Source: Mobula hypostoma
Taxonomy: Eukaryota
DNA length: 64,000 bases
NCBI RefSeq assembly: GCF_963921235.1
Contig: NC_086108.1
Span: 76,572,001-76,636,000, forward strand
Reading direction: 5' to 3'
The translations under genes and the position numbers were made by a program. The notes beneath the pieces are model-generated. The model worked only from the letters and a program-made list of their open reading frames with translations. It was not told the origin of the DNA and made no database searches. Below are positions 422 through 24,000 of the stretch, piece after piece; the first letter of the stretch is position 1, and each line of letters begins with the position of its first letter.

Positions 422-619
422 TGTGGTGATATCACGTGTAATGACGTGTCAGAACGTGATTAGAAAGAGTTCTAAGCATGCACAGAAATGTTAGAATGAT
501 CTGGAACATGGCTTGGTAAAAACGTTGTTTGGTTTTGTTGCTGTAAATAAAAGTTCTAATTCTTCCAGAATATGATTCTTTATTGTTAACCCACGGTTCG
601 TATAAATAAGAACACAACA
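422..619 (+). repeat. 5' LTR
   Basis: tgtggtgatatcac...aacacaaca; about 12 substitutions and one 8-bp indel versus the 3' LTR by manual count; contains AATAAA. Confidence 0.93.
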
Positions 620-620
620 A

Positions 621-636
621 TGGTGTAAGAAGTCGG
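621..636 (+). other. Primer binding site, tRNA-Leu-like
   Basis: tggtgtaagaagt immediately after the LTR resembles TGGTGTCAGAAGT, the complement of a tRNA-Leu 3' end. Confidence 0.7.
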
Positions 637-733
637 TCTGGAAGAATAATACTTTCGCTAATACGGAAGAAGCGAAGATAATCGAAGACAAAAAGAGTTC
701 GAACTGTTTTGGTGTTTGCTAACAGTTTTAAAA

Positions 734-1140
734 ATGAAAGGTCTGCATCCTCCGCTGACACTTCAGCTGACTGGGAACATAGCTGAGAACTGGAGAAAAT
801 TTAAGCAACGTTTTGAAATGTATTTATCAGCGATCGAAGCTGATGATAAACTGGGAAAAAAACAAAAGCTGTGCTTCTACTTCACATAATAGGTGACGAC
901 GCAATAGAGGTATATAATCAGTTTATTTTTGAAGATGGAAATCATTTAAAATTAGAATCGACAATGGACAAATTTGAAGCATTTTGTATATCGAAGCGTA
1001 ATGTGACGTATGAAAGGCACAAATTTTTTACACGTGCACAGACAGCTGATGAAACAATTGATCAATATGTTACTGAATTGAGACATCGGAGCAAAACATG
1101 CGAGTTTGCAGAATTGACAGACTCTCTCATTAAAGACAGA
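734..1140 (+). pseudogene. Gypsy gag N-terminal remnant (one frameshift at A-run ~856-862)
   Basis: MKGLHPPLTLQLTGNIAENWRKFKQRFEMYL... then LLLHIIGDDAIEVY...RNVTYERHKFFTRAQ...ETIDQYVTELR...CEF...IKDR, typical Gypsy gag. Confidence 0.85.
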
Positions 1141-1562
1141 GAGAGCAAGAGAACAGAATTTGACTCCCAATGCGGCAAAAGTAAAAGTCATAAAGAAAGC
1201 TCCCAGACCCATCCCTTTGTTACCAGCATCTGACAAAGCAATGCCACCAAAACCAGGAGTTGCAATTCTGCCCTCTGGGAGTAACGCACATGCATCAATG
1301 GGCCATGCATTCCATCACAATCTCACCTCTGCAGGAGGACAGAGGCCAAACTTGCCGGTACAGTACAGTACTGATCTGAAGCCAAAAAGTGACAAGATTC
1401 TGGATCCAAATGAAGAAGTGAAAGCACAAGTGAAGGAATTGAGAAGTTTTATTGAAATGATGAAGTCTCAGCATAAAAAAAGAGATTACACAGTTAATGA
1501 ATGAATTAGATGAAGAAGATTCGTATTCATTACAAATGGAAGTGGAAGGAATTAAGAAAGCT
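1141..1562 (+). pseudogene. SH3KBP1: Captured processed fragment of SH3KBP1 (CIN85) 3' coding region, including coiled coil
   Basis: With indels repaired: ...SDKAMPPKPG...GGQRPNLP...KPK...EEVKAQVKELRSFIEMMKSQHKKEITQLMNELDEE..LQMEVEGIKKA, versus remembered human CIN85 SDNKASLPPKPG...GHRANSP...KPK...[52 protein letters not shown]. Confidence 0.85.
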
Positions 1563-1790
1563 ACAGTACTTGAAGTACAACCCAGATCATACATGGTCCA
1601 AACAGAAGAAGGAGCAGTGTTAAGAAGAAATCGCGAAGACCTTAAGAAAGAGCCAACTTCAGAGTTTCAGTTAACTGATGCAGACCAGACAAGACATGGA
1701 AATAACAATGAAACACAAGAACTGTGTGAACCACTTGGAAGGTCTACTTGTGTTCGTAAACCCCCAGAGAGACTGACAGAAACATATTAA
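1557..1790 (+). pseudogene. Gypsy pol/integrase C-terminal remnant
   Basis: KATVLEVQPRSYMVQTEEGAVLRRNR...RSTCVRKPPERL matches the PRSYxV...RRNR / RSxRxRKPPxRL tail of Gypsy integrases. Confidence 0.8.
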
Positions 1791-1832
1791 ATCATGAATT
1801 TGTTCTGAATGTTGCTAATTGTTTTTCTTTTT

Positions 1833-1845
1833 AAGGAAAGGAAGG
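1833..1845 (+). other. Polypurine tract
   Basis: aaggaaaggaagg directly before the 3' LTR. Confidence 0.85.
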
Positions 1846-2035
1846 TGTGGTGATATCACATGTAATGATATGTCAGAATGTGATTGGAAAGAGCTCTGAG
1901 CAAGCGCAGAAATGTTAGAATGATCTGGAACATGGCTTGGTAAAAACGTGGTTTGGTTTTGTTGCTGTAAATAAAAGTTCCAGTTCTTCCAGAATATGAT
2001 TCTTTATTGTTAACCCACGGTATAAGAACACAACA
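1846..2035 (+). repeat. 3' LTR
   Basis: Direct repeat of 422-619, followed by TSD tcagg. Confidence 0.93.
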
Positions 2036-3829
2036 TCAGGTTTCCACTCTCCCACCTTGTTTACAATCAAATTCCAGCTCTTACTTAGAACAAGACCTTC
2101 ATCTTTGTTAAAATCTTTTTCCTCTAGTTGTATTTCAATGGTTTCCTTTACTAGGCAGTCCCAAAAGCCATTGCTGCAGCACAGTAGTTTTGTGCCATCG
2201 ATATCAATCCTATGGCCATTGTGAATACTGTACAGTGTTCTGGTATCTCCGGTTTCTCCGAGTAACCCAAATGGATACACCACCTGTGCTCTTTCATACA
2301 GGTTTCCACCATGCGTCCTGTCTGGTTGATATACACTGCTCCACATTCACAGGGAATCCAGTAAACACCAGCTGACCTGAGTCCCAGGTCATCTTTGACT
2401 CACATAAGCTGTGATTTGAGCTTCCTTATGGGTTTGTGAATGGTATTAATTCAGTATTTCTTTAGGATCTTGGCAAATCTTGCAGAAACCGCAGAAATAT
2501 AGGGAAGACAGGCAGTAGTGACAGGTTCCTCCTCGTTGTTAGGTTTCCTGGTTCTTCCGTCAGCCCTCTTAAGGGCGTGGTTGATTTCCTTCATCTTGTA
2601 GCCATTCTGTAGGAACCTCGTACATAATCATCTTATTTTCTCATAGAGATTCTACAGGTCCGAAACAGTTTTCGCAGGGTTAATGAAAGTAGAAAGAACT
2701 GCTCTACGGAGGCATGATGGTGGCTGTTATTGTTCACGTACACGTCTGTGCGAGTAGGTTTCTGACAGACACCATGTCCGAGGCTACTGTCCAGTTTCCA
2801 TCATATTAGAATGTCCAGGAACAGGAGGCAAACATTGTTCTCCATCATAAATTGAATGTTTGGATGTGTACTGTTCAGATGGTCGTGGAACCGTTGGAGT
2901 GCCTGGAGTCCATGAGGCCAGACTGTGAAGGTGTCATCAACATATCTGAAGAAGCATTTTGGGCGTAAGGGGTGATGAACTCAGAGCCCTCTCCTCAAAG
3001 TCCTCCATGTAGAAATTAGCAATAGCCAGCAATAAAGACAATCCCATGGCCACTACGTCCATTTATTCATAGTCATTCCCCTTATAGAGGAAGTACATGG
3101 ATGTCAGGGTGCCTTCTAAAAGGTCAATGACACCCTCATCAAACCTTGATCACAAGAGGTCTAAGCTGTCCTTAATGGGAGTTCTTGTGAACAGGGACAC
3201 CACGTTGAAACTGACCATTAATGTCCTCAGCTGGCTGTTGGATACTGTTTTAATGAAGTTGGTCAAATTTGTGATGTGCTGCTCACAACTCCCAACAAAG
3301 GGAGATAACATGGTCATTAAATGCTTAGCAAGGTAGTAAGTCATAGAATCTATCCTGCTGACGATAGACCTCAATGGTAATCCTCCCTGTGTATCTTAGG
3401 GAGCCTGTGAAGTCTTGCTAGTACCAGCGCCTGAGGCACAAGTGTCTACATCTGCAATGGCCATAGGATTGACTTCGATGGCACAAAACAACTGTCCTGC
3501 ACCAATGGCTTTTGGGACTGCCTGGTGAAGGAAATCATTGAAATAAAACTAGATGAAAAGAATCTTAACAAAGACGAAAGTCTCACCCTAAGTAAGGATT
3601 GGAATTTAATTGTAAACAAGGTGAGAGAGTGGAAACTTGATTGGATGTGGACTACGGGGGGGGGGGGGTTTACAAACGCCACCCGACTAGACATACCCTG
3701 GTATCATCAAAATGTCGGTTATAATCGATAACTGCATCCAGCTGGAAGCCCAAGAAGTGCTTATTCATCTTATATGCCGGGAAAGCACTAGATTGTTTTT
3801 TTTTAATTATTTATGTCTGACAAAAGATA

Positions 3830-6289: not shown

Positions 6290-8106
6290 AGATACTTAAA
6301 GTGTAAAGAGAGGTGAGAGTGGATATTGGACTGCTGAAAAACGATGCTGGAGAGGTAGTAATGGGGGACAACAAAATAGCAGATGAACTGAATAAGTATT
6401 TTGCACCAGTCTTCATTGTGGAATACACTAGCAGTATGGTGGAAGTTCCAGGTGTCAGGCGACATGAACTGTGTGAAGTTACCATAACTAGAGAGAGGTT
6501 CTTGGAAAAATGAAAGATCTGAAGATAGATAAGTCACCTGGATAAGATGGTGTACACCCCAGGATTCTTAAAGAGATGGCTGAAGAGTTGGCAGAGGCAC
6601 TAGTAATGATCTTTGAAGAATCACTAGGTTCTGGAATGGTTCCAGAAATCCGGAAAATTGCAACTGTCACTCCACTCTTTGTGGGAGAGAGGCAGAAGAA
6701 AGGAAACTATAGGCCAGTTAGTCTAACCTCAGTGGTTAGAAAAAAGGTGTTGGAGTTGATCATTAAGGATGAAGTCTCAGGGTACTTAAAGGCACACGAC
6801 AAAATAGGCCATAGGCAGCATGGTTTCATCAAGGGAAAAGCTTGCCTGACAAATCTGTTGGAATTCTTTGAAGTAACAAACAGAATAGACGAAGGTGAAT
6901 CACTTGATGCTGTGTACTTGAATTTTCAGAAGGCCTTTAACAAGGTGCCACATGAGGCTGCTTTACAAACTACGAGCCCATGGTATTACAGGAAAGATTT
7001 TAGCATGGCTAAAGCAGTGGCTGATTGGCAGGGTGCAAAGAGGAGGGAATAAAGGCAGTCTTTTCTGACTAGGTGCCGCTGACTAGTGGTGTTCCACAGG
7101 CATCTGTTTTGGAACCGATTCTTTTTACGATGTATGTCACCATGATTTGGATGATGGAAATTATGGCTTTGTTCCAAAGTTTGCAGACAATATGAAGATG
7201 GGTGGAGAGGCAGTGGAAGTTGAGGAAGTGAAGAGGCTACAGAAGGACTGAGATAGACTGGGAAAATGGGCAAAGAAATGGCAGATGGAATACACTGTTG
7301 GGAAGAGTCTGGTCATGCACTTTGGTAGAAGAAATGAAAGGGTTGACTATTTTATATTTGGAGAGAAAATACAAAAAACTGAGGTGCAAAGGGACTTGGG
7401 AGTCCTTGTGCAGGTTTCCTTGAAGGTTAATTTGCAGTTTGAGTCTGCGGTGAGGAAGACAAATGCAATGTTAGCATTCATTTCAAGAGGACGAGAATAT
7501 AAAAGTAAGGATGTAATATTGAAACTTTATAAAGCACTGGTGATGCCTCACTTGGAGTATTGCGAGCAGGTTTGGGCCCCTTATCTTAGAAAGGATATGC
7601 TGAAACTGTTGAGGGTTCAAAGAAGGTTCACAAAAATAATTCCAGGATTGAATGGTTTGTCACATGCAGCTTCTTTGATGGCTATGGGCCTGTATTCACT
7701 AGAATTCAGAAGAATGAGGGATAACCTCATTGAAACCTATCAAATGGTGATTGGCCTTGATAGAGTGGATGTGGAGAGGATGTTTCCTATGGTGGGAGAG
7801 TCTAAGACCAGAGGACACAGTTTCAGAATAGAGGGGCGTTCTTTTAGAACAGAGATGAGGAGGAATTTCTTTTGCCAGAGAGTGGTGAAGCTGTGGAATT
7901 CTTTGCCACATGCAGCTGTGGAGGCCAAGTCTTCATGTACATTTAAGACAGAGGTTGATAGATTCTTGCCTGGTCGGGGAATGAAAGGATACAAGGAGAA
8001 GGCAAGAGATTGGGGCTGAGAGAAAACTTGGATCAGCCATAATGAAATGGCAGAGAAGACTCGATGGGCCAAATGGCATAATTCTGCTTCTATATATTAT
8101 GGTCTT
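6290..8106 (+). mobile_element. 5'-truncated CR1 LINE, RT pseudogene
   Basis: Frameshifted ORFs with GNYRPVSLTSV, QHGF, CLTNLLEFFE, HLEYCEQVWAPY, FCQRVVKLWNSLP; CR1 3' tail ...ttatggtctt. Confidence 0.92.
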
Positions 8107-10309: not shown

Positions 10310-11869
10310 TCAAACCCTGCCTCCCATATAAGCCCCCACCTTAGATTCCTCCATATACCTGTCTAGTAGTCTCTTAAACTTCACTAGTGTATCTGCCTCC
10401 ACCACTGACTCAGGCAGTGCATTCCACGCACCAACCACTCTCTGAGTAAAAAACCTTCCTCTAATATCCCCCTTGAACTTCCCACCCCTTACCTTAAAGC
10501 CATGTCCTCTTGTATTGAGCAGTGGTGCCATGGGGAAGAGGCGCTGGCTATCCACTCTATCTATTCCTCTTATTATCTTGTACACCTCTATCATGACTCC
10601 TCTCATCCTCCTTCTCTCCAAAGAGTAAAGCCCTAGCTCCCTTAATCTCTGATCATAATGCATACTTTCTAAACCAGGCAGCATCCTGGTAAATCTCCTC
10701 TGTACCCTTTCCAATGCTTCCACATCCTTCCTATAGTGAGGTGACCAGAACTGGATACAATACTCCAAGTGTGGCCTAACCAGAGTTTTATAGAGCTGCA
10801 TCATTACATCGCGACTCTTAAACTCTATCTCTCGACTTATGAAAGCTAACACCCCATAAGCTTTCTTAACTACCCTATCCACCTGTGAGGCAACTTTCAG
10901 GGATCTGTGGACATGTACCCCGAGATCCCTCTGCTCCTCCACACTACCAAGTATCCTGCCATTTACTTTGTACTCTGCCTTGGAGTTTGTCCTTCCAAAG
11001 TGCACCACCTCACACTTCTCCGGGTTGAACTCCATCTGCCACTTCTCAGCCCATTTCTGCATCCTATCAATGTCTCTCTGCAATCTTTGACAATCCTCTA
11101 CACTATCTACACCACCAACCATTGTGTCGTCTGCAAACTTGCCAACCCACCCTTCTACCCCCACATCCAGGTCGTTCATAAAAATCACGAAAAGTAGAGG
11201 TCCCAGAACAGATCCTTGTGGGACACCACTAGTCACAATCCTCCAATCTGAATATACTCCCTCCACCACCACCCTCTGCCTTCTGCAGGCAAGCCAATTC
11301 TGAATCCACCTGGCCAAACTTCCCTGGATCCCATGCCTTCTAACTTTCTGAATAAGCCTACCATGTGGAGCCTTGTCAAATGCCTTATTAAAATCCATAT
11401 AGATCACATCCACTGCACTACCCTCATCTATATGCCTGGTCACCTCCTCAAAGAACTCTATCAGGCTTGTTAGACAGGATCTGCCCTTCACAAAGCCATG
11501 CTGACTGTCCCTGATCAGACCATGATTCTCTAAATGCCTATAGATCCTATCTCTAAGAATCTTTTCCAACAGCTTTCCCACCACAGACATAAGGCTCACT
11601 GGTCTATAATTACCTGGACTATCCCTACTACCTGTTTTGAAGAAGGGAACAACATTCGCCTCCCTCCAATCCTCCGGTACCATTCCCGTGGACAACGAGG
11701 ACATAAAGATCCTAGCCAGAGGCTCAACAATCTCTTCTCTCGCCTCGTGGAGCAGCCTGGGGAATATTCCGTCAGGCCCCGGGGACTTATCTGTCCTAAT
11801 GTATTTTAACAACTCCAACACCTCCTCTCCCTTAATATCAGCATGCTCCAGAACATCAACCTCACTCAT
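10310..11869 (-). pseudogene. CR1 reverse transcriptase domain, 519-codon open segment of frameshifted ORF2
   Basis: KSPGPDG, NYRPVSL, QHGF, DFNKAFD, PQGSVLGP, FADD motifs. Confidence 0.92.
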
Positions 11870-13400
11870 ATTGTCCTCACCATCATCAAGTTCCCTCTCA
11901 TTGGTGAATACCGAAGAGAGAAGTATTCATTGAGGACCTCGCTCACTTCCACAGCCTCCAGGCACATCTTCCCACCTTTATCTCTAATTGGTCCTACCTT
12001 CACTCCTGTCATCCTTTTTTCTTCACATAATTGAAGAATGCCTTGGGGTTTTCCTTTACCCTACTCGCCAAGGCCTTCTCATGTCCCCTTCTTGCTCTTC
12101 TCAGCCCCTTCTTAAGCTCCTTTCTTGCTTCCCTATTTTCCTCAATAGACCCAGCTGATCCTTGCTTCCTAAACCTCATGTGTGCTGCCTTCTTCCTCCT
12201 GACTAGATTTTCCACCTCACTTGTCACCCATGGTTCCTTCACCCTACCATTCTTTATCTTCCTCACCGGGACAAATTTATCCCTTACGTCCCGCAAGAGA
12301 TCTCTAAACATCGACCACATGTCCGTAGTACATTTTCCTGCAAAAACATCATCCCAATTCACACCCGCAAGTTCTAGCCTTATAGCCTCATAATTTGCCT
12401 TTCCCCAATTAAAAATTTTCCTGTCCTCTTTGATTCTATCCTTTTCCATGATAATTATAAAGGCCAGGGAGCGGTGGTCACTGTCCCCCAGATGCTCACC
12501 CACTGAGAGATCTGTGACCTGACCCAGTTCATTACCTAGTACTAGATCTAGTATGGCATTCACCCTGGTCGGCCTGTCCACATACTGTGACAGGAATCCA
12601 TCCTGGACACACTTAACAAATTCTGCCCCATCTAAACCCTTGGAACTAATCAAGTGCCAATCAATATTAGGGAAGTTAAAGTCACCCATGATAACAACCC
12701 TGTTATTTTTGCACCTTTCCAAAATCGGCCTCCCAATCTACTCCTCTGTATCTCTGCTGCTACCAGGGGGCCTATAGAATACCCCCAGTAAAGTAACTGC
12801 TCCCTTCCTGTTCCTGACTTCCACCCATATTGACTCAAAAAGAGGATCCTGCTACACTACCCACCCTTTCTGTAGCTGTAATCGTATCCCTGACCAGTAA
12901 TGCCATCCCTCCTCCCCTTGCCCACCCCTCTCTATCCCTTTTAAAGCACTGAAATCCAGGAATATTGAGAATCCATTCCTGCCCTGGTGCCAGCCAAGTC
13001 GCTGTAATGGCCACTACGTCATAATTCCATGTATGTATCCAAGCTCTCAGTTCATCACCTTTGTTCCTGATGCTTCTTGCATTGAGGTACACACATTTCA
13101 GCCCTTCTACCTTACTGTCTTTACACTGTTTATTCTGCTTCTCTTTCCTCAAAGCCTCTCTGTATGTTAGATCTGGCTTTACTCCATGCACTTCTTTCAC
13201 TGCTCTATCGCTCTGGGTCCCATCCCCCTCGCAAATTAGTTTAAACCCTCCCGAACCATGCTAGCAAACCTACCTGCAAGGGTATTGCTCCCCCTCGAGT
13301 TCAGGTGCAACCCATCCAATCTGTACAGGTCCCACCTTCCCCAGAAGAGATCCCAATGATCTAAAAATCTAAAACCCTGCTCCCTGCACCAACTCCTCAG

Positions 13401-20267: not shown

Positions 20268-20379
20268 GGTCTATCAAGCTGTGGTGTTAATGATGTCACA
20301 CTGCTCTTTATAAAGCCAGCCTTGCCTGCATTTGAGAAGGTCATATATAAGTCTGGTATCAGCGAGCAAAGAGTTTCCA
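20268..20379 (+). other. RNF220: 5' UTR part of the RNF220 first coding exon
   Basis: Polypyrimidine tract and acceptor tttattttgttctctttattaatatag| ending at 20267. Confidence 0.7.
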
Positions 20380-21007
20380 ATGGACTTGCATAGAACAGCT
20401 TTCAAGATGGAGAATTCTTCCTACCTCCCTAATCCCCTAGCATCTCCAGCTTTGATGGTCCTTGCCTCCACAGCAGAGGCTAGCCGAGATGCCTCTATCT
20501 CTTGCCAGCAGCCTAGACCTTTTGGAGTACCCGTCTCAGTGGACAAAGACGTCCACATCCCCTTCACCAATGGTTCGTACACCTTTGCTTCAATGTACCA
20601 TCGTCAGGGTGGGGTGCCAGGGGCCTTCCCGAACCGAGATTTCCCCCCTCAGCTGTTGCATCTGCATCATCAATTTGCACCTCCAAACCTGGACTGTACC
20701 CCCATCAGCATGTTGAACCACAGTGGTGTTGGGGCTTTCCGGCCTTTTGCCTCCACTGAAGACAGAGACAGCTATCAGTCTGCCTTTACACCTGCCAAAA
20801 GACTAAAGAACTGCCATGAAACCGAATCCCCCCATCTGAGGTTTTCAGACTCTGAGGGCAAGGAATATGAGTTCACAGCCCAGCTCCCATCCAGTTCCCC
20901 CAGCTCTCTAAAGCTAGATGACTCTGGAAAAAAGGTCTTTGCTGTGTCAGGTCTCATCTCTGACCGAGAAAATTCTGCAAGCCCTGAAGAAAGTCGAAAC
21001 GAAAGAT
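20380..21007 (+). CDS. RNF220: E3 ubiquitin ligase RNF220, first coding exon (209 codons + 1 nt)
   Basis: MDLHRTAFKMENSSYLPNPLASPALMVLASTAEASRDAS...SAFTPAKRLKNCH...FAVSGLISDRE is nearly identical to the remembered mammalian RNF220 N-terminus; donor T|GTGAGT at 21007/21008. Confidence 0.96.
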
Positions 21008-24000
21008 GTGAGTGTTATTTACTTACTTTAACTTATTTTTAAATTTTTATTTGCAGATTCAAATGTTCCAGTTAATGTATCACAAGCTTTTTGGTAACTG
21101 CATTTGACATAAACCGTGCTTGACATAAAATAAGTTATCTTACTGAAGTTGCTACTTTAAAATTCAAGCTATTTGAACTCAGAATTATTCCATTTTTCAA
21201 ATAAAAACTCAAATATATGTAGACATCCAGAGTAAATATTCTTGTCAGTATATCACTTTTCAAAATCTGTATTTTAATTTCAGTTATGGGAGTTGGTTTG
21301 CTTGTGAGCAAGGTTTTTAATGGTCTGCTTTTAAAATAAAGCCAAGTAAAGCAAGTACAACTGTATCTTCTAATGATTAAAATTCTTTAAAGGAATTTAG
21401 TGAAAATCAGGTTCAGTGGAAAGCTAATGATATGAATATTCTTATAAAGAAAGGCTTACCACTAGCATTACTCAACAGCACCCTACTTCCATCACCATAC
21501 CCCCCCCCCCAACACTAGCACAATCAACCAAGCAACTTCTGGGAAAAAAGAGAGTAAAGAACCCATAACAGGGAGGAAGCCAATTCCCGCATCGGTATTG
21601 TGATGTTTGTTGAGTGAAATTGCAATCCCAGAAGTTTGTGGGGCCCGTCAGTGTTTTGAGAAGAAAGGTGGGACTTGGAAGATGAGGTGATAATGGGTGA
21701 TAAGCTAACAATCCTCAACTGTGGGAAGCTACTGACTTTTGTTGCTGTTTGTTTTGGTTGAAGAAAAGAAGTAAGAGGCGGCAAGGGGGAAAAGTGAGAA
21801 GAATAACGGAGCTGAAAGAGTGAGGGAGAAAGTGAAAGCAAAGGGAGGTAAAAACCAAGTGGGTGATAAAAAGTAGCATCAAAAAACAAGCGGCGAAGTA
21901 GAAAGACGTGAAAAATGTAGAGGACAAGTAAAGATTTTTTTTCAAAAGTTTGATTGCAGTAGGGAACACAGATGGGCTATATTATGTTAAGAATGAGTAA
22001 TTAATCAGCAATTGTTGAGTCAGAATCCAGGCCCCTATCTTCCTTCCTGTGCCGTTAACAAAAAAAATTAAAACAACAAAACGTGGATGTCTTTGCTTCC
22101 TTCCTGACAAGACCAACCTGGTTGCTTTTCTTCTTCATAAATGTCTTCTGATTTATTAAGAAAACAATTTGGAGCAGTGTTGGTGGAATGGTAACGATAG
22201 GGGAAGTAGTACAAATTGAAACCTATATGAATACTTTATTCCTTTCCCTGCAAGTAAACTTTGCATGGGTGTTCTTACGGCTGTGTTTTGTAGTGCTTAA
22301 CCAGATGTGAAAACACTGATCTTTTCAGTTCTTCCTATTGGATTTCAACTGGCATCCTTTTCACATTTCTTTTAGTGCTTCCCTCCCCTCTTTTCCCCTG
22401 CCCTCTTCTTATGGTAATGATAGGCACTAATATGGAAAAATCGAGAGGAAGGCAGCAGTGGATCGGCGTTGAGCTCTTGCTGAGAGCTGGTATTATGCAG
22501 CCTCAGTCTTTAAGCCTGCGGTGTAGCAAAAAGGATTTGAGAGTTGTAGGAATGAATATTGAGGTGCGAAGGAGACAAGACAAAGGACAATTGGTCTTTA
22601 ACACAATGCCATTTGTTATAAGGCTGAGGTGTGAGTTGCCGCAGTTTAAAAAATACCTTGGCTTATATTCGTATTAGTCATAGAGCTGGGGACTAAATTT
22701 CTTTAGCTGATAAATATGCAATGGCAGCTTTTTAGAAATGTAAGTGCAAATGCTAAGGAAAAGCTGATGGGATGGAAAACCATTGAAATAGTCTGCAATT
22801 AGTCAAAATATGTTTTAAGCTGTTTTATGAATGACGATTTGTTAAACATTAACATTTAATTTTAATAAAGCTACGTTAAAAGCCTTCTCTTCAATATCCC
22901 AGGCCATCTGTTTATATTTTAGGAATTCTTCATACCCTCTGGTTAACCATCTCCATTCTTTGAATGATAACAAAATCAAACACATTCAAATATGAATTTG
23001 ACTTGTTATAAATAACTTTCCACTTGATTTTGAGCATCGCTTTAAATTAAAAATTAAATTTCACTAGACATTCCTCTACTTAATATCTAATTTTTATCTA
23101 GCAATGGATAATAAAGTATTCAGTTTTTTTAAAATGACAGTGTGGTACATTGAGTGCCTAATGTGGATCATTTATAGATGTTCTTTTGAAAATGGTACGT
23201 AATATTTAAAAATTGATAGTAATGTGCCATTTCTTCAGATATATTTATTAGCAAAATTGTTATGATGTCAGTTAAACAATCTATACATTTATGGCTTTAT
23301 CTATTGGTCTGTCTACATCTTACTATTTATTGCTTTAGCTACTTTTAGTTAACACTGATTGCATTGCACTAGCATGTAGGATAAATGGTTGATTTACAAA
23401 GTGGAGTTTCATTACAAAGGCTGTAGCTTGAAATATTGCAGCTAAATGGTAATATGTATGGAATTTTTGGGGCTGCCAGAGGCTTAGTACACAGATCTGT
23501 CACTTTCCCTGAGCAACAACCCTGACGACCTCTATTCAAAGTGCCATCGATTTCCTTTCTTTATTTCTTCCCAAAAAATCTGTTACAAGACTTCTGCCAA
23601 GGGAGTACCTGCTCAATTGTGGCATAGCAGTTCTTTGCTTTTAAACACTGTTCTCTTAGAAATAAAAATGAACCTATATATTAAAACTTCAAAAAATTTC
23701 CTTCAAAATGAAAAACCAAAATATATGATGCTGTGGTACAGATATTCTAGTCCCTGTATTTTAAATGATTTGGATATTGCATGTCTAAACAATAGAGGTC
23801 TGAGTTAAAGGAGTTTATCTATTAACGTGAGCACTGTACTTCACGATTGGCAAAATGTAGCTAGGCAAATATTCAGAGTTGTTTCACTGTTAGAATTTCC
23901 ATTTGTTAAAAATGTATTGTGTGTGATTCGGGTCTTGAGTAAATGATTCAGAAAGAGGCTCGTGACTACCAGTGTACAGCCAATTTCCTGCTTGATTTAA

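Follow-up and report, generated by a model that had tools for sequence, protein, structure and literature searches.

A Ty3/gypsy LTR retrotransposon family of rays carrying spliced host SH3KBP1 and RABEP1 mRNA

The genome of Mobula hypostoma harbors a family of non-autonomous Ty3/gypsy elements in which part of pol is replaced by spliced mRNA of the host gene SH3KBP1 (CIN85), of RABEP1, or of both in a double chimera; each of the two genes encodes a coiled coil of a protein involved in endocytosis. The copy described here lies on C50 of the 3.48-Gb genome (G000), at positions 422-2035 of the stretch analysed (64,000 nucleotides of contig NC_086108.1, positions 76,572,001 to 76,636,000; hereafter the window), and is one dead insertion of the chimeric family that carries an extra private deletion. 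Taken as a whole, the observations are very probably best explained by a Ty3/gypsy family that would have captured two spliced host mRNAs by template switching and spread in trans with selection for reading frame, followed by neutral decay.

All features of the window copy are on the forward strand. Its 5' LTR with TG...CA ends (422-619) and its 3' LTR (1846-2035), both delimited by LTR-LTR alignment, share 90% identity over 198-201 nucleotides including gaps (K2P 0.067 over 190 sites) and are flanked by a directly read target-site duplication, TCAGG, at 417-421 and 2036-2040. The primer-binding site TGGTGTAAGAAGTCG (621-635), which we take to be of the tRNA-Leu type, reads TGGTGTCAGAAGTCG in most other copies, and the polypurine tract AAGGAAAGGAAGG was read directly at 1833-1845. 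The original prediction of a complete cis-architecture, with two LTRs, primer-binding site, polypurine tract and 5-bp duplication, was thus borne out. The 5' part of gag starts at the ATG at 734, shows a frame change near 850-889 and is 77% identical to the gag of the full-pol relatives L055 and L056, the match to element relatives ending at 1140. The integrase C-terminal tail (1555-1790) is 90% identical to L056:5107-5281 and runs to the element's own stop codon (TAA, 1788-1790). Env is absent, the tail leading directly to the polypurine tract and LTR both in the window copy and in the full-pol relative L057. With LTRs, target-site duplication, primer-binding site and polypurine tract present, and reverse transcriptase (RT), RNase H and integrase core absent, the window element is a non-autonomous Ty3/gypsy LTR retrotransposon. 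A Pfam search of four window reading frames returned nothing informative.

Elsewhere in the window, a 242-codon open stretch at 20314-21042 (+) reads like a large host coding exon, presumably resembling the first coding exon of RNF220; it has no Pfam match and follows the element, on the same strand, at a distance of about 18 kb. At 2151-2980 (-) there are broken frames resembling RT and endonuclease, which we assume to be Penelope-like; a 46-nt inverted pair is located at 2176-2221 and 3455-3500. LINE-type endonuclease and RT frames, presumably CR1/L2-like, are found at 10310-12737 (-) and 7252-8019 (-).

The roughly 420 bp between gag and the integrase tail, which had been judged not to be pol, align at 1142-1561 with the last four coding exons of host SH3KBP1 on C18. 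In the host gene, introns with GT-AG borders (4180, 1087 and 2037 bp) lie between these exons, whose translation forms the end of protein P0002. The insert comprises the 3' part of the fourth-last exon (1142-1225; host exon G000:C18:80902064-80902210), the third-last exon with a proline-rich motif, the linker and the first half of the coiled coil (1226-1477; C18:80906391-80906641), the second-last exon, also coiled coil (1478-1535; C18:80907729-80907792), and the start of the last exon (1536-1561; C18:80909830 onward), ending before the host stop codon with no 3' UTR or poly(A). Three exon junctions are thereby crossed with zero intron sequence, so this segment is spliced SH3KBP1/CIN85 mRNA, as had been proposed. 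In 24 other loci the junctions are crossed gap-free within 5 nt in 23, 19 and 24 cases, respectively; the loci that fail carry indels of a few bases, none of them an intron.

Relative to the host mRNA, the window insert has six indels: -2 nt near 1147, +1 at 1164, -3 near 1187, +1 in the A-run at 1475, -5 after 1512 and -1 after 1525. The copy had been described as frameshifted, and the last three of these indels correspond to damage already listed; a loss of about 780 bp of gag and protease had been overlooked. The two frameshifted halves of the insert match the human CIN85 coil structures 2N64/5ABS as their top PDB hits, weakly (E 0.02-0.04). An unbroken natural copy, L007, matches the same structures at E 1e-14 over residues 426-487 and ray SH3KBP1 with 96% identity over residues 352-490 (E 3e-71), which supports the proposed identity of the segment as the CIN85 C-terminus with its oligomerisation coiled coil; the inserted coil is about 97% identical to that of the host. 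The protein search behind the SH3KBP1 match gave 17 hits among 282 candidates, 16 full-length three-SH3 proteins and one chimera. Residues 245-331 of L007 match an aspartyl protease below the Pfam cut-off.

Copies of the element are numerous. In searches with the whole element and with the insert, 40 of 1570 and 40 of 446 candidates were scored, and all of those scored are element copies; the CIN85 3' junction pattern had 138 genome matches against 0 for a reversed-pattern control (at most 2 mismatches). The chimera has thus been amplified, as predicted, but in a different form: the copies that spread read gag-protease-CIN85-integrase tail, and not gag fused straight to CIN85 as in the window. 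Other copies retain the approximately 780 bp (gag C-terminus, zinc (CCHC) knuckles and aspartic protease) missing at the deletion junction at 1135-1147, between window position 1140 and the insert. The gag-CIN85 junction of the window has a single exact genome match, itself, and the window copy is therefore a derivative, private to this locus, of the subtype with an insert beginning at host position 59. This junction was rejected as a subfamily marker; its other match is a simple repeat, and the controls gave 5.

Twenty further loci were chosen from 43 exact matches as new with respect to earlier tables, a set enriched for rearranged copies. Eleven of these were typed, L066 and L067 were compared with each other, and L070, L072 and L074 were dropped, having no element sequence in the stretch read. 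Target-site duplications agree in all nine loci with both flanks readable, out of 20 loci inspected for this feature, and eight of them are distinct. Between the LTRs of 14 other copies divergence ranges from 0.06 to 0.15, the highest figure stemming from an alignment that overruns the LTR. The identical pairs L015/L016 (C1:168.38-168.43 Mb) and L066/L067 (C9:86.07 and 86.43 Mb) have target-site duplication or sequence in common and are recent segmental duplications or assembly duplicates. L018 (G000:C73:40739663-40743486) consists of two adjoining partial chimeric copies in inverted orientation.

Three full-pol relatives, L055-L057, display the order PR-RT-RNase H-IN, are about 82% identical to the chimera in gag-protease and are all interrupted. 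None carries the insert, which disposes of the possibility, set out beforehand as grounds for refutation, that the segment is an ordinary part of the autonomous element. Pfam matched RVT_1 and RT_RNaseH in these relatives, with Integrase_H2C2 only below the cut-off and no match for the integrase core fragment; the best PDB match of their RT is Ty3 RT (E 3e-39). An intact autonomous partner of matching age was not found among the three relatives read. A 274-match motif was discarded as a tally of autonomous parents, since it also occurs in RABEP1-only chimeras and in deletion derivatives free of host sequence. One locus of the latter kind, L093 (G000:C21:70119255-70119950), contains no host insert; an in-frame deletion has removed its RT and RNase H, and part of the integrase end is duplicated.

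Comparison of the chimeras with these relatives locates the switch points. At the 3' end, the CIN85 insert stops at host positions 484-488 in 24/24 loci, at the 7-nt word AGAAAGC (window 1555-1561) common to the host mRNA and the integrase tail of the relatives (L056, L057). At the 5' end there are two entry points, host 105 (at the RT start) and host 59 (just after protease), both at short common words; derivatives of these entry junctions have element or linker sequence deleted. About 2.2 kb of L057 pol is missing between the switch points, where the chimeric element is discontinuous. Since microhomology with a full-pol Ty3/gypsy relative occurs at both insert ends, RT template switching onto the host mRNA is the likely route, in agreement with the capture mechanism first suggested. 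A LINE-made processed pseudogene inserted into a gypsy element, or a pick-up at the DNA level, is an extremely improbable alternative. LINEs are abundant here and RT frames occur in the window, but the insert lacks poly(A), 3' UTR and a target-site duplication of its own, that is, the L1 hallmarks; it stops short of the host stop codon, pol is replaced rather than interrupted, microhomology is present at both ends, and the absence of introns excludes capture of DNA.

The same family separately captured a second spliced mRNA. In five of the 20 further junction-bearing loci (the set enriched for rearranged copies), a host segment ahead of the CIN85 coil corresponds to the coil at the N terminus of RABEP1, with a match to Pfam Rabaptin at E 1e-27 and 93% to the RABEP1 of the devil ray. 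The host RABEP1 splice donor and acceptor each occur once in the genome, on C71, 9.06 kb apart, and element copies run across this exon junction at 92-95% identity, so that one host junction is spanned. L091 and L092 are RABEP1-only chimeras that pass from the RT start to RABEP1 and on to the integrase tail, with microhomologies of their own at the insert ends (AGAGCT; CAAGGAG[A]). The chimeras recombined into a RABEP1-CIN85 double chimera, whose junction has 131 genome matches and none for the reversed-pattern control (at most 2 mismatches), two of the matches coming from one internally duplicated locus. A 171-match pattern was set aside as a count of double chimeras, as it also matches RABEP1-only copies. 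The simplest order of events would be two independent captures followed by recombination of co-packaged chimeras. In one double-chimera subtype (3 loci) protease is missing and gag continues into RABEP1. One double chimera (L078+L075+L079; G000:C66:33008300-33009300) contains the region around its RABEP1-CIN85 junction as internal tandem repeats. P0045, a Hemitrygon gene model, represents a further recombinant, in which the CIN85 coil is nested inside RABEP1 and the resumed RABEP1 segment is followed by the integrase tail; recombinants of this type may explain why many double chimeras are absent among the CIN85 3' junction matches listed. A protein search anchored on the protease, which does not amount to a census of captured genes, yielded 8 proteins out of 122 candidates; all 3 ray proteins among them are CIN85 or RABEP1 chimeras.

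Occurrence of the chimeras is not restricted to the devil ray. The same chimeric junctions are found in gene models of Hemitrygon (P0003, P0045) and Hypanus (P0047), a DNA contig of organism D bridges the CIN85 3' junction, and five organisms contain 0.37-0.45 of the sampled words of the window stretch. Both CIN85 inserts have M39/G40, which are common to devil ray and stingray as opposed to sawfish, and show none of the changes that arose later in either host lineage; a stingray-specific residue is similarly missing from the RABEP1 inserts. Judging from these shared and lacking residues, capture would therefore date to the stingray/devil-ray stem, later than the divergence of sawfish but earlier than that between devil rays and stingrays, provided that descent was vertical.

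A further regularity concerns the reading frame. Junction types present in at least two loci or species are in frame with gag-protease in 12 of 13 cases, in a small, non-random sample whose types were assigned by eye from translations. For CIN85 these are the 3' junction, the 5' junction at the RT start and two element-side deletions thereof, the 5' junction after protease and two linker deletions, one of them single in G000 but present in 14 contigs of run X7 (net 93-nt deletion); for RABEP1 they are the 5' and 3' junctions, protease-RABEP1, RABEP1-CIN85 and gag-RABEP1. The out-of-frame type is a gag-CIN85 fusion of the C9:86.0-86.4 Mb cluster, read in L065 and L086 and deduced for L066/L067 from equal spacing. 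Singleton junctions are in frame in three cases (one being the host-free L093) and out of frame in one (C9:176.67 Mb), and the window's own junction is in frame only with a 2-nt gap beside it. The in-frame share expected from microhomology alone, element versus host, is 38-54%, and the binomial probability of 12/13, calculated by hand, is approximately 5e-4 at 45% and 4e-3 at 54%. Also, non-CpG variants of gag-protease in 17 copies (L016 and L018 left out) comprise 31 synonymous and 44 other changes when found in at least 3 copies, against 86 and 319 when private (synonymous share 41% versus 21%; Fisher p 4e-4), an excess for which recombination with autonomous relatives could account.

These patterns suggest that replication favoured RNAs with the gag-protease frame open into the insert. 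We lean slightly towards the explanation that chimera RNA must be translated in order to be stable and packaged by its own Gag; the coils would then be passengers. Spread of the chimeras as plain RNA parasites, with the in-frame excess produced by in-phase microhomology and sampling, appears rather unlikely. It would accord with the phase bias of the microhomologies, with the amplified frameshifts and with the origin of loci L021-L030 in a protein search that favours open frames; against it stand the low probability of the 12/13 score, the synonymous excess of shared gag-protease variants and the fact that a protein search does not choose the frame at the element-host boundary. Selection for translation need not have extended to the end of the polyprotein: a 1-nt deletion six codons before the insert end is common to 8/24 copies and the extra A in the A-run to 5/24, and an open frame through the integrase tail was thus not required.

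Both captured segments are coiled coils, which raises the doubtful prospect that the coils themselves were selected for the element, an oligomerising coil behind protease (or, in the subfamily without protease, behind Gag) replacing multimerisation by RT/integrase or tethering particles to membranes. The family would then have twice recruited coiled coils as modules of a shortened Gag-protease polyprotein, and afterwards a double coil, with improved packaging or maturation benefiting the element and not the host; such a role, for which we see only a modest chance, would add to the capture mechanism without replacing it. Analogies are offered by a leucine zipper placed behind HIV-1 protease, which is reported to enhance multimerisation and cleavage (PMC3291649), and by the binding of the CIN85 coil to phosphatidic acid (PMC4096430); the same zipper, however, lowered particle yield. 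In the double chimera the two coils are fused in frame, and its junction matches (131) are roughly as numerous as those of the CIN85 3' junction (138), but one double chimera, at C5:70.79 Mb, has lost most of the CIN85 coil. Deletion derivatives trim the proline-rich linker or element sequence and keep at least part of the coil in 11/11 cases, although all had been chosen by the coil-end junction, so that retention of this end follows from the choice. With its 46% A, the CIN85 coil has 2-4 times more microhomology with the A-rich element than non-coil sequence has (only 0.9-1.4 times for RABEP1), which weakens the case that coils were chosen. The host-free derivative L093 is in frame as well, and the non-CpG changes common to several inserts, 4 nonsynonymous and 1 synonymous and of little power, give no sign of constraint.

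After insertion, the copies decay neutrally. Private changes in 24 inserts, a small share of all copies, amount to 121 nonsynonymous, 39 synonymous and 7 stops, against expected shares of 0.71/0.25/0.04 (L016, the duplicate of L015, and re-fetched loci left out), and the differences from the host that nearly all inserts share are confined, within the counted codons, to two synonymous sites. With these neutral changes, and with the six indels of the window insert, the cargo is neither intact in frame nor seen to be under purifying selection. Domestication of one copy as a host gene, a free CIN85 or RABEP1 coil then acting on endocytosis, is very unlikely. L007 does have a 563-codon open stretch over gag, protease, insert and tail, and the annotations of two stingrays include three copies as gene models; nevertheless the L007 stretch starts inside gag, such a stretch is present in 1/20 loci, four amino-acid changes but no synonymous one are private to the L007 insert, and the annotated stingray copies are full of scattered replacements.

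In three runs guessed to be RNA, host mRNA is dominant and element parts are thinly covered (32 of 2358 pieces listed), and none of the contigs listed extends at least 31 letters to each side of a chimeric junction. In run X15, where an unspliced intron end also occurs, a contig crossing the 3' junction reaches only 17 letters into the host part, and in run X19 one crossing a 5' junction reaches about 20 letters into the element part; neither was counted. When compared with L007:1822-1959, contigs of runs X7 and X17 omit the coil end and show 9-25 other letters in between, which makes a further junction type.

The events leading to the present copies may be reconstructed as follows. A Ty3/gypsy family active in the stingray/devil-ray ancestor would have co-packaged host mRNAs, and its RT presumably jumped from element RNA to spliced SH3KBP1 mRNA at AGAAAGC, copied 380-430 nt, as the structure of the inserts suggests, and jumped back near the protease/RT boundary, so that RT, RNase H and integrase core were replaced. 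The family would have independently repeated the capture with spliced RABEP1 mRNA, and the two chimeras, whose recombinant products are observed, probably recombined later at a further microhomology. Having kept LTRs, primer-binding site, polypurine tract, gag and usually protease, the chimeras would have been mobilised in trans by full-pol relatives and so have reached hundreds of sites, a spread visible in the junction counts and separate target-site duplications. RNAs with an open frame would have been favoured during this replication, and the inserted copies left to decay.

Acutely transforming retroviruses carry gag-onc fusions in which host coding sequence replaces pol, and they depend on helpers. 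The ray chimeras resemble them in the replacement of pol, in the frame shared with gag and in helper dependence, but have no env, infection or known growth advantage; their germline copies are fixed and the RT of the family is closest to that of Ty3. The likeness to oncogene transduction drawn in the original prediction is loose, env being absent, and the closer precedent is LTR-mediated retroposition (PMC5131818).

By its exon junctions, replaced ORF, microsimilarity and absent L1 hallmarks, the ray family is an LTR-mediated retrocopy in the sense of Tan et al. 2016 (PMC5131818). Such retrocopies also have an internal ORF replaced by partial spliced mRNA, with both LTRs kept and no poly(A); switch points show microsimilarity (median 6 bp there, 5-10 here), two-gene chimeras occur, and copies are re-amplified as non-autonomous elements, with 18 insertion sites for nine fly retrocopies and 5 LTR-type cases in zebrafish. 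The mechanism, the joining of two genes in one chimera and the renewed amplification are already known from that source. In contrast, those retrocopies are young and "in-frame" refers there to the parental gene, whereas the ray chimeras are fused in frame to the element's gag-protease, exceed 130 copies per junction, are common to ray families and are accompanied by both single chimeras and the amplified recombinant. Old vertebrate LTR elements multiplied with captured host mRNA across related species are also exemplified by CrocERV29 (KIT ligand) and CrocERV31 (nectin3); these are env-bearing retroviruses (PMC4299795) with 9 and 6 copies and separate-ORF cargo reported under purifying selection, unlike the gypsy element of rays, whose cargo is fused into the polyprotein and decays neutrally. 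Maize Bs1 is likewise a single LTR element with fragments of several host genes in a chimeric frame, but it is a plant element reported to be transcribed and translated (summarised in PMC13317346), while the ray chimeras are known here from genomic sequence.

No published description of the ray chimeric family was found in a search of the literature, and the main text of the devil-ray genome preprint (10.64898/2026.10.27.761883) contains 0 mentions of SH3KBP1, RABEP1 or retrocopies. The family differs from known cases in copy number, in age, in being fused to the polyprotein of the element itself and in the preserved series that leads from the parent to the double chimera; the scale, the double capture and the frame bias are unusual.

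The family provides an unusually complete natural record of mRNA transduction by a vertebrate LTR element, with parent family, two single chimeras, recombinant, deletion derivatives, both donor genes and several species. With more than 100 copies per form, it allows the direct question of whether the translation or the cargo of a non-autonomous element is selected in replication, which the few-copy published cases cannot answer. The chimeras are mis-annotated as genes in stingray genomes. Also, hundreds of repeats 92-98% identical to SH3KBP1 and RABEP1 mRNA could draw small-RNA silencing onto these host genes and, if rays are a hot spot of capture, such elements would constitute a lineage-scale source of exon shuffling.
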